Under the pieces are notes generated by a model. That model worked only from the letters and a program-made list of their open reading frames with translations, made no database searches and was not told the origin of the DNA. From Octopus vulgaris (lineage: Eukaryota): a stretch of 64,000 nucleotides of DNA. The DNA is taken from positions 66,774,001-66,838,000 of the forward strand of contig OX597825.1 of NCBI GenBank assembly GCA_951406725.2. The letters run 5' to 3'. The position numbers and the translations under genes are program-made. This document shows, in pieces, positions 2,658 through 64,000 of the stretch; the first letter of the stretch is position 1; each line of letters starts with the position of its first letter.

Positions 2658-3388
2658 GTGTGTGTGTGTGTGTGTGTGTAGGCAAATCCATGAACAATAA
2701 AACAGTAAAGACAAAAGTTAATTGGTCACACGCAGTGAATGCATTAGATTTAAGCTCAGTGATGGTTTTAGATGGATAGATAAGAGTAGAAATGGCGTCT
2801 CTAGCATGCCCCACCGTCGGTTAGTGTAAGAAGTGCAGAGAATGTGAAAAAGAGGAAACAGAGGAATTGTCCGTAGAAAAGCACGTGTTATATAGACTTA
2901 CGCAGAGACAATCACGCGAACACACACACATATTTATACTTACATATTTATACTTTAACCTGATGGTGCTTTGTTTTACTGGGAAGCAATACTAATGCAT
3001 TGCGCAATCTAATAATTTTTCTATATATGTATGAATATACGACAGGCTTCTTTTAGTTTCCGTCTAACAAATCCATGTATATATGTATGTATGTATGTAT
3101 GTAGGTATGTATGTATGTATGTATGTATGTAAGTATGTATGTATGTATGTATGTATGTAAGTGCCATGTAGCCAAGGAGTTCAATTCGTTTCGCAAGCCC
3201 GAGATTACGAGTTCGAGTCTATTGCATTGCATATTGGATAAACGTCATTTTCCATAGCTCCAATGCAACCCATGGCTTACGGATGAAATAATGTAAAACA
3301 ACACTGTGTAGGCCATCGGGTTGATTGCACCCTTAATTCAAATGATGCATCCTTGTCAAACTTTGCATTACAGTAATTATCTTACGAA

Positions 3389-3637
3389 GGCGGTGAGCTG
3401 GTAAAGGCGGCGAGTTGGCAGAAACGTTAGCACGCCGGGCGAAATGCTTAGCGGTATTTCGTCTGCCGATACGTTCTGAGTTCAAATTCCGCCGAGGTCG
3501 ACTTTGCCTTTCATCCTTTCGGGATCGATAAATTAAGTACCAGTTACGCACTGGGGTCGATGTAATCGACTTAATACCTATGTCTGTCCTTGTTTGTCCC
3601 CTCTGTGTTTAGCCCCTTGTGGGTAATAAAGAAATAG
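3389..3637 (+). mobile_element. SINE family B (tail 1) with 16-bp TSD
   Basis: TSD GTAATTATCTTACGAA at 3373-3388 and 3638-3653. Confidence 0.9.
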
Positions 3638-3829
3638 GTAATTATCTTACGAATTACATTAAACGGTATCAGTTTCTGTGAAAGTCCCCACAAATAATCA
3701 GTTAAATCGGAAGCAGTTGGTCGAGTAAATGAAACCACATTTCCGAACAACAGGGATCCACTAACAGCACCATCAGCATCACCATCACTATCGTCACCAC
3801 AACCACAGTTGTTTGCTGTGTAGGTTACT

Positions 3830-4929
3830 TATGTTGTGTGCGGATAGTTATTTGTTTATCCGTGCTTTATCTGTGGTGTTCACTGAACACAGGTAGAGTG
3901 GGAAGACCTGGAATTCGGGAGAATTATTGTTTTGCTCATATGCCTGTGTCCACTCAGCGGAATCTGTCTAGTACTGGGGTCTCGTATTTGTTGTCGGTGA
4001 ATGGTCAGTCTATATCTTAGTGTAAGCTTAGTTTGACCTATGTACTCTTCATTACATCCTTGACATTTGATAGCGTATATTAAATTCCTTGAAGAACATG
4101 CAAAGTAATTCTTTACGGTAAATATCTGTCCTGATTTGAATTTGTATATTGTGTCTTCAATAAGATTGATGCAAGTCCCACAATTGGGGCGGCCACACTA
4201 TTTGATTGTTGGTGTAGGATTTGTGGAAGGTAATTAAGCACTTGTGAAGAATATTTTGAGAGACAGTGATTGTCTTTTAATCTTGACTATTTTGTGTATT
4301 TCGGATGTTTGTTTCATTCTTGGGTGTTGTCTTAGTAGTGGGATGTTTTGGTGGATAGTATTGTAATTCTTGGGTTGTGTATTGTAATAAAGGTTAGATT
4401 ATTGGATGTATCTGGAGCATTTTCATTTTTCGTAGTTTTTGGATATTTATTGCTTTCACATTTTCTATTCCGTTGTCAACTTTAATGGATATTGTCTTGT
4501 AAGCAGTATTTGTTTTACGAATTTCAGAGTTTGAGACAATTGTGCAGAATTGCTAGAGTAAAGAGAATATTATTCTTCGTATGTTTCAGAATGCATGCGG
4601 TAAACAATAAGTATTGTTTAGAATCTGTTTGTTTGTAGTGAATGTCTGTTTCAATGTTTTTATCTCTTTTGATGATATCCAGGAATGGTAGTTAAGTTTT
4701 ATTGTATTCCATGGTGAAGCTTATATCATTGTTTATGCTGATGTTAGAGGTTTTTGAAATCTGTAAGTTGTTCACATGTATGCGTCCATAGAATTAGGCA
4801 GCCATCTAGGTAACGTTTCCAGTTAGTAGATATTTGTGAAAGTCCAAGCCATATTTTGATTTTGAGTGTTCATATATCTAGACCTCCATGTAAGCTATGA
4901 CTAGATTATCGTAAGTCGGAGCAACTTTT
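3830..4929 (-). pseudogene. Penelope-like element remnant (RT C-terminal half + GIY-YIG endonuclease), disrupted
   Basis: Minus-strand translations: KVAPTYDNLVIAYME, WKRYLDGC (YxDD site), LPFLDII, IETDIHYKQTDSKQYL, CGRPNCGTC, NLIYAIKCQGCNEEYIGQT..RLTIHRQQI; stops and frameshifts present. Confidence 0.85.
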
Positions 4930-5162
4930 GTCAGCGTGCAATGAAAAGAAAACTGCAGACACATATATATATTTTCACACACACAAACACACACTCACAC
5001 ACACACACACTCACACACACACTCACACACACACACACAAACACACACACAAACACACACATATGAAAAACACGATCACATATATAGATGTATTTATCTA
5101 TCTATCTAACAATTATTATACACATACATACACAAATACATATGTATATATATATATATATA

Positions 5163-5940
<778 letters not shown>

Positions 5941-5954
5941 TATGGTGGTAGGTT

Positions 5955-6170
5955 CACTCAGCTGTAGAAATGAGTTGCGACGTCACGAGTGCCAAGCTGT
6001 ATCGGCCTTTGCCTTTTCCCTTGGATAACACTGGTGGCGTGGTGAGGGGAGGCCGGTATGCATGGGCGACTGCTGGTCTTCCATAAACAACCATGCCCAG
6101 ACTTGTGACTAGGAGGGTAACTTTCTAGGTGCCATCCCATGGTCAGTGTTGTGACCGAAGGGGGTCCCGG
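5955..6170 (+). mobile_element. 3' portion of another retroposon/SINE (family C)
   Basis: Tail CTAGGTGC..CATGG..TGACCGAAGGGGGTC recurs reversed at about 59605-59652. Confidence 0.5.
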
Positions 6171-7139
6171 ATGGTGGTAGGTAGAAGCACAGGTATAAAA
6201 ACACACAAGCACGCACACACACACACATACACACACATAGGACAGACTTCTTTCAGTTTCCGTCGACCAAATCCACTCACGTAGATGCTTTAGTAGAAGT
6301 CACTTGCTCAAGGTGCCATGCAGTTGGACTGACCTCGGAACCATGAGGTTTGGAAGCATCTATATACATCATACATCACTCATACACGCACACATACACA
6401 CACACTCAACACACAAACACACATGTATATAATTACAAATGCAGATATAACGACTCACAAATATTCGTTTATATATTTGCATACAAATAGTTGAATAGAT
6501 AGATACGTATCGGAAATACATTTTCTAATGCTTCTCAATACAGAACATTAGGAAATTCTTCCTTATAGCGATTTTACGATAGTTTTGAGGAAAAGAAAAT
6601 ATGAAAAACATGCTGACCACATGCCCTAAGAGGCAAGGAAATAGGGATACATAGAAAAGAAGGAGAATTGTGAGAGTTAAAGCAAAACAAATGGAATAAG
6701 AATTCCTGCTTTCAGAACGTAAAGAATGCATTGGTCCATTTAAAATATTCCTATTGCTTCTCCTGGCATTGAAATTCATAGAGTTATGAAACGAACAGGA
6801 ATTGTAGTTTATCGATCTTTGAAAACCTTCGGGGAGAGGTTAGATAATAGTAGCTAACATTAACTTTCAGTTTTACGCTTGCAAAAGCTTCAAGTGATTC
6901 TCATTACAAACTTACTACAATCCTTTAGGTCAAGAAAGCGATAGACTGATTCAAATAGCGTTCGTATATATATGAAGATCAAAATGATTTCATGCGGCGA
7001 ACACTTATATTACAATGTAACTAAAATGTTAATGGGTAAGATACGTATAGAAACATACTTACCTACGAAAGGGTCACCGGATTTAAGGCTATCGCGAAAG
7101 GCCTGGCTGGTGGTCCAACCTCCCGGGTTTTTCTGCAGA

Positions 7140-7281
7140 TCTTAGAAAAAACTAAAGGGCACCGCTGCAATAAGTGTATGAATGTTAGAGGGGTGCATGT
7201 TGAATAAAAAAAATTCATAATTATCTAATCCTGTATTTTCTTTTACCGAAAGCCGGGAAATTTTCAGCACACCCTCGTACA
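7140..7281 (-). mobile_element. mariner-like terminal fragment
   Basis: Minus strand starts TACGAGGGTGTGCTGAAAA, a typical mariner TIR with TA. Confidence 0.45.
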
Positions 7282-7286
7282 TACCT

Positions 7287-7671
7287 CGCAGGAGTGGCTG
7301 TGTGGTAAGTAACTTGCTTACCAACCACATGGTTCCGGGTTCAGTCCCACTGCGTGGCATCTTGGGCAAGTGTCTTCTACTATAGCCTCGGGCCGACCAA
7401 TGCCTTGTGAGTGGATTTGGTAGACGGAAACTGAAAGAAGCCTGTCGTATATATGTATATATATGTATGTGTGTGTATATGTTTGTGTGTCTGTGTTTGT
7501 CCCCCTAACATTGCTTGACAACTGATGCTGGTGTGTTTACGTCCCCGTCACTTAGCGGTTCAGCAAAAGAGACCGATAGAATAAGTACTGGGCTTACAAA
7601 GAATAAGTCCCGGGGTCGATTTGCTCGACTAAAGGCGGTGCTCCACCATGGCCGCAGTCAAGTAAAAGAGT
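7287..7671 (+). mobile_element. SINE family A, full length
   Basis: High similarity to 5515-5898. Confidence 0.9.
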
Positions 7672-7917
7672 ATACCTACTAACGTATATATATATACATT
7701 TACTTGTTTCAGTAATGGGACAGTGATCCTGCTGGGAACAACCTTGAAGTGTCTAGTTAAATAAACCGACCCTAGTAAATATTTCCTTTAAGTCTAGTAC
7801 ACATTTTCTCGGAGTATTTTGCCGAACCGCACCGCTGGTTCGGGAAATATGACTAAACAAACACCGGTTGTCGAGCGATGGTGGGGACAAACATAATATA
7901 AACACCAAGACATACAA

Positions 7918-8006
<89 letters not shown>

Positions 8007-8337
8007 AATGCATACACCCAAGTCTATGCATCTATTCTTGTAAGAGACTTAGTAATCGCTTAGATTTGAAGAATCCACGTCAGTTTCTTTTACACTTCTC
8101 CGTGAAACTGAGTCTTCCCAAGTTTTAGTGCAAATGTTGTATGTATGTATGTATTTATGTATGTATGTATGTATGTATGTATGTATGTATGTATGTATGT
8201 ATGTATGTATATTTTCAAATTTGCATGCTTTGTTTTATGTATGTATTCTCATGCATATAGTTGCATATCTAGACATGAAAACATATCTTCGAACTCATAT
8301 AAAGAATCTTGCAAGCCAAATCCCAAAACGAAGACTG

Positions 8338-9243: not shown

Positions 9244-10773
<1,530 letters not shown>

Positions 10774-11787: not shown

Positions 11788-11790
<3 letters not shown>
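11636..11790 (-). mobile_element. Short HHR-bearing element (family H3) between (TA)n tracts
   Basis: About 155 bp of unique sequence flanked by long TA runs; HHR motif followed by AATAAA. Confidence 0.65.
11740..11777 (-). ncRNA. Minimal type-I hammerhead motif (C4 variant)
   Basis: CTGT-CCGATGA-A-CG(GCAA)CG-G-GAA-ACTCAGAGT-A-ACAG. Confidence 0.6.
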
Positions 11791-11836
<46 letters not shown>

Positions 11837-11851
11837 TACATATATACATAT

Positions 11852-11937
<86 letters not shown>

Positions 11938-11943
<6 letters not shown>

Positions 11944-12741
11944 AGATAGGGGTTGAAAATTCAACCCACCATGGGATAATATATATCCAATATACTGCTA
12001 GATAGGTACCCAACAAGACTAATACATAGATGCTAAAAATTGCCAAACAATCAGTTCATCTATTGTATTATATGGGTAAAGGTAATAATATTACCGTAAA
12101 TTAATACTACAAAATTAGTGAATGGAGAAACATACTTAAATCAATAAAACATCAACTATCAGATGATACCCAATCAATACTTTAATACACCATTACATAT
12201 CAGTAAAGGCATTATAAAAAATATACAGTAAGAGTAAATAGACAAAGAGATATAAGTATAAAATTTCAAATATAATATGTAATTAAATCAATTCTGACAG
12301 CTGTTTCGGCAGTGAGGGCAGTCATACCTCATTTAACCTATAAGCCATAAAGGCAGGTATAAATGAGGCATTAACAAGGATGCCCCACGGCCTCTTCAGA
12401 GAATTAAATTTGTTATAATTGTGAAAAAGATTATTTAACCATATACATATAAATATAAAAATATAAAAATGTAAAATATAAAAACTTATACATAAACTTC
12501 ATAATGCTACACTTATATAATATAATACTCATTGGTACAATAATGGAAGGTAAACAGGACAAAATAAAACAAAATATATATCAGTGTATATATTAATATT
12601 AATAAGCACCGATATTATACATATTTGGCTAATAGTTTTTTAAAAAAACTAACACATAGGGAGATGAAAAATAATAATTAAAACCATGGTTCAGTTCATA
12701 AAATTATAAAGCTATAAAAGTTAATAAAAATTACTATTAAT

Positions 12742-12772
<31 letters not shown>

Positions 12773-12902
12773 TATACAGTTATGTTTGCACCAAGTCCAT
12801 CCTTTCAAGATTGTAATAACTATGAGTTAAGAAATACTGACCACTAGGTAATGATAATTTAGATTAATTCGATTGGCTATTGGTTTGAAATTTAAATCAC
12901 AA
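11938..12902 (-). mobile_element. About 1-kb AT-rich PLE-type terminal remnant between (TA)n tracts
   Basis: Flanked by TA microsatellites; contains the canonical HHR at 12290-12405. Confidence 0.5.
12290..12405 (-). ncRNA. Type-I hammerhead ribozyme, canonical core, long stem II
   Basis: AATTCT-CTGAAGA-GGC...GCC-GAA-ACAGCTGT-C-AGAATT; stem II about 85 nt, extensively paired. Confidence 0.85.
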
Positions 12903-12906
12903 TATA

Positions 12907-12983
<77 letters not shown>

Positions 12984-12990
12984 ATATTAC

Positions 12991-13049
<59 letters not shown>

Positions 13050-13077
13050 CCTACCTATCTATCTATCTATCTATCTA

Positions 13078-13136
<59 letters not shown>

Positions 13137-18849: not shown

Positions 18850-20105
18850 AAGCTGCGAGCTGCTAGAATCTTTAGCACAGCTGGAAAAATGGTTAGCGGC
18901 ATTTCGTTTGCCGTTACGTTCTGAGTCCAAATTCCGTCGAGGTCGACTTTACCTTGCATCCTTTCGGAGTCGATTAAATAAGTAACAGTTACGCACTGTG
19001 GTCGACATAATCGACTTAATCCGTTTGTCTGTCCTTTTTTGTCCTCTCTGTGTTTAGCCACTTGTGGGTAGTAAAGAAATAGGCATTTCGTCCATCAGCA
19101 CCTTCTAAGTTCAAATTCTGCCAAGGTCGATTTTGCCTTTCATCCTTTTCGGGGATGATAATATAAATACCGGTTAAGGCCGCGAGCTGGCAGAAACGTA
19201 AGCACGCCGGGTGAAAGCGGTATTTCGTCTGTCTTTATGTCCTGAGTTCAAATTCCGCCGAGATCGACTTTGCCTTTTATCCTTTCGGGGGCGATAACTT
19301 AAGTACTATTTACGCACTGGAATCGATGTAATCGACTTAATCTCTTTGTCTGTCCTTGTTTGTCTCCTCTATGTTTAGCCCCTTGTGTGCAATAACGAAA
19401 TAAGAAACGTTAGCACTGGGTGAAATGCTTAGCGGTATTTCGTCTGCCGCTACGTTCTGAGTTCAAATTCCGCCGAGGTCGACTTTGCCTTTCATCCTTT
19501 CGGGGTCGATAAATTAAGTACCAGTTACGCACTGGGGTCGATATAATCGACTTAATCCGTTTGTCTGTCCTTGTTTGTCACCTCTATGTTTAGCCCCTTG
19601 TGGATAGTAAAGAAATAAGCAATCTTAGCACGCTGGGTGAAATGCTTAGCGATATTTCGTCTGTCTTTACGTTCTGAGTTCAAATTCCACCGAGGTCGAT
19701 TTGCTTTTCATCCTTTCGGGGTCGATAAATTAAGCTCCAGTTGCGTAGTGGGGTCGATCTAATCGACTTTCCCTCTCCCAAAATTTCGGGCTCTGTGCCT
19801 AGAGAAGCAAAGACTATAAAGTACCGGCTGAATACTGGGGGCCAATGCAAACAATTGGCTTTGTGCCTATAGGAGAAAGGATTATAATTTTTTGGTTCGT
19901 TGTGTGACAAAATCAATAAAACAGTGGACAAATTAATGCCTTTCATCAATTTACTTTCTGAGCAAAAAATGTCGCCGAGGTCAACTTTATCGGTCAATCT
20001 CTCGATGTTCGATAAAATAAATTCCAGTTGAGCACCGGGGTCAAAGTAATCAACTTGCTTTCTTCCTTCACAATTGCTGGCTTTCTGTGAAAATTAGAAC
20101 GAGAA
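18850..20105 (+). mobile_element. Tandem cluster of about 6 SINE family B units
   Basis: Repeated GAGTTCAAATTC..GTCGACTTTGCCTTTCATCCTTTCGGGG units, head to tail. Confidence 0.85.
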
Positions 20106-40065: not shown

Positions 40066-40492
40066 ACATTATTGGTGAATTGAAGAAATGGAGCTGAACG
40101 CAGATTGAACAGAAATCGTTTTATTTCATTCTACACGTGTTTCGAAAGGCACAAATTACCAAAATCCGATGGAATAATGGGACCATATTGTGTCTTTCTC
40201 TTCAGGAAGAAAGACACAATATGGTCCCATTATTCCATCGGATTTTGGTAATTTGTGCCTTTCGAAACACGTGTAGAATGAAATAAAACGATTTCTGTTC
40301 AATCTGCGTTCAGCTCCATTTCTTCAATTCACCAATAATGTTCTAATTTCAATTATCCGCACCAACGCACGGTTGCAACACCATATGGTTGTACCTCCAA
40401 CCGTGCTGTTTTACTGCTGTGATTTTTGCTACTAAGGTATCGGTTAAACTTTTGATTAATCTACTACAAGATTATTCATCTTTCTATTTCAC

Positions 40493-48038: not shown

Positions 48039-48455
48039 AAGGCGGTGAGCTGGCAGAATCGTTAGCACGTCGGGCGAAATGCTTAGCGGTATTTCGTCTG
48101 TCGTTACGTTGTGAGTTCAAATTTCGCCGAGGTCGACTTTGCCTTTCATCCTTTCGGGGTCGATAAATTAAGTACCAGCTATGCACTGGGGTCGATGTAA
48201 TCGACTTAATACCTCTGTCTGTCCTTGTTTGTCCCCTCTATGTTTAGCCCCTTGTGGGTAATAAAGAAATAGGTATTTCGTCTGTCATTACGTTCTGAGT
48301 TCAAATTCCGCCGAGGTCGACTTTGTCTTTCATCCTTTCGGGGTCGATATATTAAGTACCAGTTACGCACTGGAGTCGATGTAATCGACTTAATCCCTTT
48401 GTCTGTCCTTGTTTGTCCCCTCTATGTTTAGCCCCTTGTGGGCAGTGAAGAAATA
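48039..48455 (+). mobile_element. SINE family B dimer (tail 1), head-to-head with the preceding copy
   Basis: Two tandem units joined by AAAGAAATAGGTATTTCGTC. Confidence 0.9.
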
Positions 48456-52121: not shown

Positions 52122-52732
52122 TGAAGTATATTTACCACCTAAAGTGGCTAACCCTATGGGTCGATGCTACTGTAGTTTGTAGCCCCAGGAAGACATTTCC
52201 TCCAGCTGGCTATTGATAGGGCACAGATAGTGTGTCAATAGCCAGCTGGAGGAGATGTCTTCCTAGGGCTACAAGCTACAGTAGCATCGACCCTTAAGGA
52301 TTAGCCACATTTAGGTGGCAAATATACATCACGATGTCGAGCTGCTACTGTTTATAACTCGCTCAGAGATTTATTTTGCTTGTTCCCACTTTTTCGAGAT
52401 CACTGACTTTTCGTCACTGGATAAGTCTATATATTTGCATTGAGAACCACTTCCAATCGCCAATCGTTGGTTGTCACGCGCTGATGAGGGGTCAATACCC
52501 AGAAACTCGGGTCCGTGTGTATCACGTCAGGCTGGAGATGAGAACGATGACTTCCCTTTGCAAATACTGATATGGCACAGATAGTGTGTCAATAACCAGC
52601 TGGAGGAGATGTTTGCCTGGGGCTACAAGCTACAATAGCATCAGCCCTTAAGGGTTAGCCATATTTAGGTGGCAAATATACTTCACAATGTCGTGTTACT
52701 ACTGTATATATCTCGCTCAGAGATTTATTATA
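52122..52732 (+). mobile_element. Retrozyme/PLE-like non-coding element: inverted segment plus about 155-bp direct repeats around an HHR
   Basis: Inverted arm 52122-52217; direct repeats about 52220-52375 and 52575-52729; candidate TSD TACTATTT at 52114-52121 and 52733-52740. Confidence 0.75.
52475..52519 (+). ncRNA. Minimal type-I hammerhead motif, canonical core
   Basis: CACGCG-CTGATGA-G-GGGT(CAAT)ACCC-A-GAA-ACTCGGGT-C-CGTGTG. Confidence 0.8.
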
Positions 52733-63269: not shown

Positions 63270-64000
63270 TTCTATGTTTGACTTTTGCTTTATATTTGTA
63301 CAAGTTGGCTCCAAGTCTCACCCAGAGACCTCAAGAGACAACAGGGTTGGAAGTTCATGTTGTTGTTATGCCTAGTGTGCCATATATTTGGGGGTGGGGA
63401 TGTTGTACTAATGAATGTCTAAAAAAAAAAAAAAAGGTTTTTTTTTTTTTTTTTTTTTTAAACCGAAAATTATGTTTGTTTTAAACCTTGAGATTACATA
63501 GAGAGTATTTTGCGTAGGATATGAGCAGTTCCCATGAGCACTATCTTTTGAACTTCTGCCATTTTTGGGTTTCCTGGTATCTGAGTTAGGTAGCTATCAG
63601 CCCCTTTTGCTATCATTCCCAGGGCACCTATGACAACAGGTATTGTTTTAGTCTTCAGCTTCCACATTTTGCTGATTTCTATTTCAAGATCTTTATATTT
63701 GCTCAGTTTTTGGTAGGTCTTGACAGATACGTTTATATCGATTGGGACAGTCATATCAATGAGGAGGCATGTTCTTTGTTTGAAGTTTTTCAATATGATG
63801 TCTGGCCTATTTGCATCTATCTTCCTGTCAGTTTGAATGGTGAAGTTCCAGAGGAGTGAGATGTGGTCATTTTCAAGCACTGGGGGTGGTTTGTGTTCCC
63901 ACCAGTTTTTTTTCATGGGGCAAATCCAGGTTTTTACAGATTACCCAGTGAATATATTGTGCAGCTCTATCGTGCCTGTTGAGATACTCTGTAGGCGCTA
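63270..64000 (-). mobile_element. 3' end of an R4/Dong-like non-LTR retrotransposon with restriction-like endonuclease, adjoining (AAT)n
   Basis: EYLNRHDRAAQYIHW, then a +1 frameshift in the A-run at about 63910, then WNFTIQTDRKIDANRPDIIL..CLLIDMTVP..KLSKYKDL..PVVIGALG (ORF 63494-63916); 3' UTR runs into (AAT)n. Confidence 0.9.

Follow-up and report, generated by a model that had tools for sequence, protein, structure and literature searches.

In the 64,000-nucleotide stretch of octopus DNA analysed here (the window), the minus strand carries a type I hammerhead motif with an 85-nt stem II. We interpret this motif as the hammerhead in the terminal repeat of a Penelope-like element (PLE) that is young and belongs to the Hydra clade. 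A double hammerhead would cleave slowly or with the aid of protein, and stem II would be a rod, specific to the family, onto which the protein encoded by the element docks (probability of about 0.62 for this reading as a whole). The initial annotation had described a textbook hammerhead and the best candidate for an active ribozyme; the long-stem-II hammerhead was borne out, the stand-alone ribozyme was not, and the Penelope-like retrotransposon in which the motif sits had been overlooked. The minus-strand positions given there for stem I, core, stem II, GAAA, palindrome and GUC site all hold (Table 1).

Table 1. Positions in the window of the hammerhead parts, the surrounding element and a second long-stem-II hammerhead.
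Feature	Position	Strand	Basis or remark
Stem I, 5' strand	12405-12400	-	pattern; reaches 8 bp including one G-U in the window copy
Catalytic core CTGAAGA (CUGAAGA, C3-A9)	12399-12393	-	sequence
Stem II rod, 85 nt	12392-12308	-	predicted fold of -40.7 kcal/mol with 33 pairs; unbroken helices reach 11 bp
Core GAAA (G12-A15.1)	12307-12304	-	sequence
8-nt palindrome, predicted intermolecular stem III	12304-12297	-	duplex -11.1 kcal/mol
Predicted cleavage site after GUC	between 12296 and 12295	-	hammerhead consensus
Stem I, 3' strand	12295-12290	-	minority variant, 5/94 sampled copies
Family A PLE 3' end (pLTR region), 5'-truncated, ~970 bp	11935-12902	-	identity to L076; boundaries common to other copies
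(TA)n microsatellite (target) adjoining the element at its 3' end	11790-11938		repeat analysis
(TA)n/(GATA)n microsatellite adjoining the element at its truncated 5' end	12902-13131		repeat analysis
Second long-stem-II hammerhead, family B, stem II 55 nt	40129-40208	-	inverted junction 40160-40247

The window motif contains the CUGANGA, GAAA and NUH core together with the G10.1-C11.1 and A15.1-U16.1 pairs of a type I hammerhead, with zero unpaired bases between A9 and G10.1. Folding of 12280-12415 yielded -49.1 kcal/mol (z -6.59; equalled by 0 of 200 shuffles), and the minimum free energy (MFE) fold contains every stem II helix that had been proposed. The description as a GC-richer island was also correct, as the G+C content of stem II is 48% (41/85) compared to 23% for 12001-13000. 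CTGANGA alone is found 21 times in the window, about as often as chance would give (20.0). Rfam returned nothing at the hammerhead site (0 matches at E<=10 in 12100-12600), whereby its hammerhead models do not span such a stem II length. By inspection, the families have no common loop at the canonical distance for a loop I-loop II contact, whereby such contacts may still exist. On the plus strand at ~52475-52515 there is a further, short hammerhead-like motif (by eye), whose stem I has 6 bp and whose stem II is mismatched at its base; it has probably decayed.

The element to which the motif belongs was termed family A. The window copy shows 90-91% identity to the 3' end and the 5' pLTR of the full-length copy L076 and terminates at the distal one of the two 3' end sites of the family. 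A search of the octopus's own genome (2.8 Gb) with a 161-nt query yielded 1,082 candidate copies; the 40 that were scored are all 99-100% identical, and many hits are arranged as divergent pairs. Family A copies are 5'-truncated, lie in (TA)n and frequently have an inverted arm, and the longer ones carry an ORF. The full unit of 5.58 kb, as present in L076, consists of a hammerhead, 617 nt, an ATG with a 947-aa ORF, and another hammerhead, which follows the first at a distance of 5,579 nt. The predicted protein has RT motifs and, at the C-terminus, a GIY-YIG-type domain (VVY...YIG) and presents, by eye, RWR, DKT, a CxCx5C linker, CxxC and CxH near the C-terminus, and no CCHH. Pfam gave no match for this ORF nor for the 895-aa ORF of family B, the second family with a hammerhead in the window. 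Among the best 120 of 671 homologues of the family A protein, the top named matches are from Argonauta hians. The single RT/GIY-YIG ORF and the pLTRs, recognisable from the tandem arrangement, 5' truncation and inverted truncated copies, are those of a PLE (EN+), and the (TA)n insertion preference is that of the Hydra clade. With the Hydra-clade PLEs described by Craig et al. (2021, PMC8557442), including Hydra-1_Obim, family A has in common RW(R/K), DKT, CxCx5C, CxxC and CxH without CCHH, the C-terminal GIY-YIG, the (TA)n target, a hammerhead near the 3' end, and tandem as well as inverted truncated copies, whereby it has RWR where the Hydra-clade list gives an RWK-like motif. In the family B protein DKT and RW are present and a clear CxCx5C is absent. 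Judging by these motifs, which were read by eye, the element is a Hydra-clade PLE; the literature already describes hammerheads in PLEs, the Hydra clade itself and a Hydra family from Octopus.

A Nematis-like identity of the ORF, initially considered, was dropped because the motif list in PMC8557442 fits Hydra, and a SECIS identity of the stem II rod, weighed by eye, was dropped because an in-frame UGA is missing from the family A ORF. The window motif is also not a non-LTR retrozyme, being a single hammerhead inside a fragment of a 5.58-kb coding unit. Compared to the Hydra-clade PLEs described in PMC8557442, family A is larger (5.58 kb with a 947-aa ORF versus under ~3 kb) and has ~180 nt between its two 3' ends instead of a 30-40-bp tail. 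Long asparagine-rich insertions between RT and endonuclease in the ORF (L076, oriented 3288-6131) and a 2.1-kb AT-rich 3' UTR (oriented 6132-8249) give the unit roughly double the length of the Hydra elements that have been described. Several full-length copies (L077-L083) break at one common ORF position and yield 459-aa products with like endings, which suggests a slippage-prone spot or a non-autonomous sublineage. The window copy, with its single hammerhead and without an ORF, is most likely a passenger, able to cleave only with a partner RNA in trans, and shows no sign of a host function. A host gene context was not found in the window: none of 146 further ORFs, out of 173 filtered ones with a length of >=55 aa (a set that short exons would escape), has a Pfam match.

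Hammerheads were counted genome-wide with exact patterns that had a 6-nt stem III hexamer, other loop III lengths being outside the count. There were 904 matches with a stem II of 7-32 nt (control 24), 7,612 with 33-57 nt (control 3), 3,720 with 58-82 nt (control 3) and 1,645 with 83-112 nt (reversed control 12), the latter far above chance; together, 12,977 matches (control 18) have a stem II of 33-112 nt, and the resulting long-to-short ratio is valid for the 6-nt-hexamer pattern only. Counted by eye, 92 of 100 matches listed for the longest class belong to the superfamily of the window motif. The fetched loci form at least 24 long-stem sequence clusters with a stem II of 49-101 nt. The core is intact and GUC or GUA is the commonest triplet in 24/24 of them, and the pattern would also have permitted GUU. 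Across families, stem II has no common sequence, length or internal loop, and the fold strength of representatives ranges from z 0.6 to -7.5, whereby several barely beat their shuffles. A Hydra-like RT or endonuclease lies upstream on the same strand in six families, namely A, B and those in L135/L222, L163, L182 and L224. Family B, with 940 candidates (40 of 41 matches listed 100% identical), an 895-aa ORF and an array on C1 in which four 3,624-bp units follow each other head to tail, is a very young Hydra-like family. Other long-stem families are tandem arrays: L226 (C1:10835000-10840000) and L227 (C1:16525000-16530500) are retrozyme-like, with ORF-less units of 594 and 535 bp, each of which contains a hammerhead with a long stem II (70 and 49 nt). 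Among metagenomic loci, a first scan with a single protein query gave zero relatives; of 79 Hydra-like loci, mostly on short contigs, 10 have a hammerhead, in all cases with a stem II of 10-23 nt. As far as sequence patterns tell, a long stem II characterises the whole class in this genome, compared to 10-24 nt in published and metagenomic Hydra relatives.

The Hydra rows in File S2 of PMC8557442 have a stem II of at most ~24 nt, compared to 85 nt in family A, but the same file includes a spike-moss PLE-X1 motif with a stem II of ~53 nt, flagged as deviating, so that a long stem II in a PLE has a precedent. The minimal hammerheads of metazoan PLEs, as described by Cervera and De la Pena (2014, PMC4209133), resemble the motif in being type I, in lying in pLTRs, in the palindromic helix III, the short helix I, the G10.1-C11.1 pair and the predicted dimer activity, as well as in the many dispersed truncated copies and opposite-strand pairs. 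However, their "larger than usual" helix II has 7-8 bp versus ~33 pairs in 85 nt here, and the lack of an unpaired base between A9 and G10.1 is a further difference; in viral type I motifs, a "long helix II" means 6-8 bp (PMC13725137). Animal non-LTR retrozymes are likewise type I with a weak helix III (PMC7229834; bioRxiv 10.64898/2026.07.22.740005) and are matched by the 535- and 594-bp arrays, whereas the window motif is the truncated end of an autonomous ORF-bearing element and not a tandem non-coding unit. A literature search found no hammerheads with a 50-100-nt stem II in animal PLEs, a point on which the supplements of PMC4209133, PMC8557442 and the bioRxiv preprint and also Lunse et al. 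(2017) may bear.

In the monomer, the catalytic fold (-41.6 kcal/mol) is predicted to lie 7.5 kcal/mol above the MFE fold, in which the core CUG is mispaired with the palindrome (probability 0.97); stem III of a monomer can close by no more than 2 bp. The monomer pair probabilities are 0.96 for stem I, 1.0 for stem II and 0.001 for stem III, which is predicted only in the dimer, where two palindromes would form an 8-bp duplex (Table 1; of the dimer, only the palindrome duplex energy was computed). Out of 244 deduplicated long-stem sites, 225 have a fully palindromic stem III hexamer, and 237 do if G-U pairs are allowed. All 8 palindromes permitted by the search pattern occur, whereby the pattern itself fixes the outer C-G and the purine-pyrimidine positions. 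Because the monomer is predicted to misfold, cleavage likely requires two copies that pair through the stem III palindrome, as the dimer option of the initial annotation had allowed. The energy gap speaks against the best candidate for an active ribozyme, and so does the window copy itself, a fragment with a single hammerhead and no ORF. Dimer cleavage by PLE hammerhead variants was reportedly found by Lunse et al. in 2017. Metazoan PLE hammerheads were described to cleave weakly and as dimers (PMC4209133), the legend of Figure S8 in PMC3088659 is consistent with such a dimer model, and the palindrome data presented here fit it.

Stem II is probably under selection as an RNA structure. Out of 50 variants found, 23 distinct ones from five subfamily groups were picked by hand and aligned; the CUGAAGA core, by which they had been selected, is invariant in 23/23. 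For the named hammerhead structure, pairing amounts to 94% and 95% in the two helices of stem II, with double changes at 4/12 and 3/12 pairs (7/24 in total), compared to 31-42% pairing in slid controls. The covariation score of stem II was reached by 0/500 shuffles and the count of pair types by 52/500, whereby the counts amount to a few events since the variants are related, and the structure was derived from the same sequences. The long stem II of the type I fold is thus kept among copies, with covariation, and in this respect the initial annotation was confirmed. Stem II is more similar than the flanks in three of four A1 comparisons (0.99, 0.94 and 0.83 versus 0.63-0.93); in the A1-A3 comparison, 0.83 stands against 0.63-0.66 for the flanks and 0.60 for the shuffled background, whereas the 100-nt subfamily A4 (0.57) is not above its flanks (0.50-0.64). 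It may simply be that mutation is faster in the AT-rich flanks. The weakness of the motif lies in stem I, which is 62% paired and in which only the two core-proximal pairs are kept (23/23 and 21/23 variants). Among 94 deduplicated copies, a sample biased towards ORF-bearing ones and to which the variant frequencies refer, the 6-bp form of the window occurs in 5 and two pairs followed by mismatches in 48; the ORF-bearing subfamily has the latter form (~-3 kcal/mol). The designation "textbook" is thus not borne out.

The strongest competitor of the docking-rod reading is that we deal with an ordinary PLE hammerhead whose stem II could lengthen, as a tolerated outgrowth, in the absence of a loop-loop contact that would have to be preserved, its pairing being maintained only to spare the core from disturbance or by hairpin-templated repair. 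We regard this as quite possible, although not as the leading account. It would agree with the sequence-unrelated stems of 49-101 nt in the clusters, with the variable folding strength and with the occurrence of hammerheads with a short stem II both among Hydra relatives and, with 904 matches, in this genome, but it would not predict that the distal helix covaries too (the helix with 3/12 double-changed pairs and 95% pairing), that stem II is better conserved than the flanks in three of the four A1 comparisons, or that long forms dominate the pattern counts. Neutral outgrowth is thus a close rival of the protein-docking rod, which nevertheless is our best guess.

The ends of genomic copies were used to deduce which RNA serves as template. 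Measured from the cut site, 3' ends of family A lie at ~+190-200 (42/94) or +370-385 (27/94), with 24 further copies running into the ORF and one ending at the locus edge; those of family B lie at +50-79 (26/59) or +220-227 (18/59), with 15 running into the ORF. No 3' end lies at the cut site (0/94 and 0/59), and neither does any 5' end of ORF-bearing copies (0/30 in each family, whereby some loci share one insertion); 4/60 of these 5' ends lie within 20 nt of it, and 23/30 (A) and 17/30 (B) of the ORF-bearing copies read through. Two-armed insertions pair one short and one long end in 9/10 (A) and 8/10 (B) cases, and the rest run into the ORF. Because no copy ends at the cut, reverse transcription most probably uses uncut or re-ligated RNA and starts ~200 or 380 nt past the cut site; the copy ends would be compatible with rare cleavage as well as with circles. 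Contigs of four runs presumed to be RNA, which concern the 5' pLTR only and cannot reveal ends, strand or editing, cover the 5' pLTR and in part bridge the cut site, and contain no joints. In anole Poseidon (Frangieh et al. 2024, PMC11167929), the hammerhead cleaved only with its protein, RT began at two sites downstream of the hammerhead in uncut RNA, and hammerhead mutants left in vitro insertion unaffected. The two fixed 3' ends found here suggest two RT starts beyond the hammerhead in the same manner, and the account of PMC11167929 likewise reports no RNA ends at the cut. However, Poseidon belongs to another clade and its hammerhead overlaps the start codon (PMC11167929); a like protein dependence in family A is putative.

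Such data could also mean that cleavage no longer matters and that the motif is kept as a structured RNA signal for packaging or RT positioning, with the core carried along. The cut site devoid of copy ends, the weak stem I and the unchanged in vitro insertion of Poseidon mutants (PMC11167929) would be in line with this. We nevertheless consider it improbable, as the core is intact, GUC or GUA prevails in 24/24 long-stem clusters although GUU was permitted, the family-specific palindromes are kept, and re-ligated circles would likewise leave no ends at the cut.

According to our preferred reading, the double hammerhead with a docking rod, the two pLTR hammerheads in a tandem transcript would swap palindromes, the swapped pair would cut slowly or with protein help, and cleavage would free an RNA of unit length that terminates in the stem II rod at its 3' end. 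We hold this swap and release to be reasonably likely. The rod would then dock the ORF protein of the element, a step that we propose only tentatively and that taken alone is rather unlikely, and RT would copy uncut or re-ligated RNA from ~200 or 380 nt downstream of the cut. Against this, the clade does not require a long arm, since Hydra relatives work with 10-24-nt stems, and stem I is weak in the ORF-bearing subfamily and the cut site is unmarked by any copy end. The role of hammerheads in PLEs is described as an open question (PMC8557442).

A ribozyme that stands alone, is active as a monomer and has a rod that is at the same time a substrate for Dicer or ADAR, along the lines of the initial annotation, would suit the 6-8-bp stem I and the 33-pair rod of the window copy but is very improbable given the predicted monomer misfolding, the rare stem I variant (5/94), a longest unbroken helix of only 11 bp, the lack of an edited-template signature in the 94 genomic copies (A>G at 1/16 A positions, G>A at 5/20 G positions) and the two-armed insertions of the family, which would yield far longer duplexes than stem II.

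As a wider speculation, which we think unlikely to hold in full, the stem II of cephalopod Hydra-clade elements would be a 50-100-nt family-specific domain that binds the element's telomerase-like RT, the ribozyme would be gated by protein, and the palindromes would form a family pairing code. If true, this code would confine cleavage and circularisation to the own family and the retrozymes derived from it, and ~13,000 such motifs would be invisible to standard descriptors. Length-limited descriptors and Rfam overlook a large natural hammerhead class. Families A and B, which are young, have intact ORFs (of 947 and 895 aa, respectively) and nearly identical copies, and differ in palindromes and long arms, provide material for swap experiments, suited to cleavage, protein binding and RT start sites.

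The window contains remnants of other elements as well. A GIY-YIG endonuclease fragment with cysteines upstream lies at 3880-4197 on the minus strand (Pfam PF01541, E 8.8e-05), which we take to be probably a Neptune- or Naiad-type PLE remnant, and a non-LTR RT fragment (PF00078) lies at 9350-10423 on the plus strand. A C-terminal fragment on the minus strand at 63497-63940, for which Pfam gave no support, presumably resembles the restriction-like endonuclease of non-LTR elements. Finally, tandem copies of an abundant SINE-like repeat are present at 19216-19769 and 48088-48455, with periods of 215 and 184 bp, respectively.
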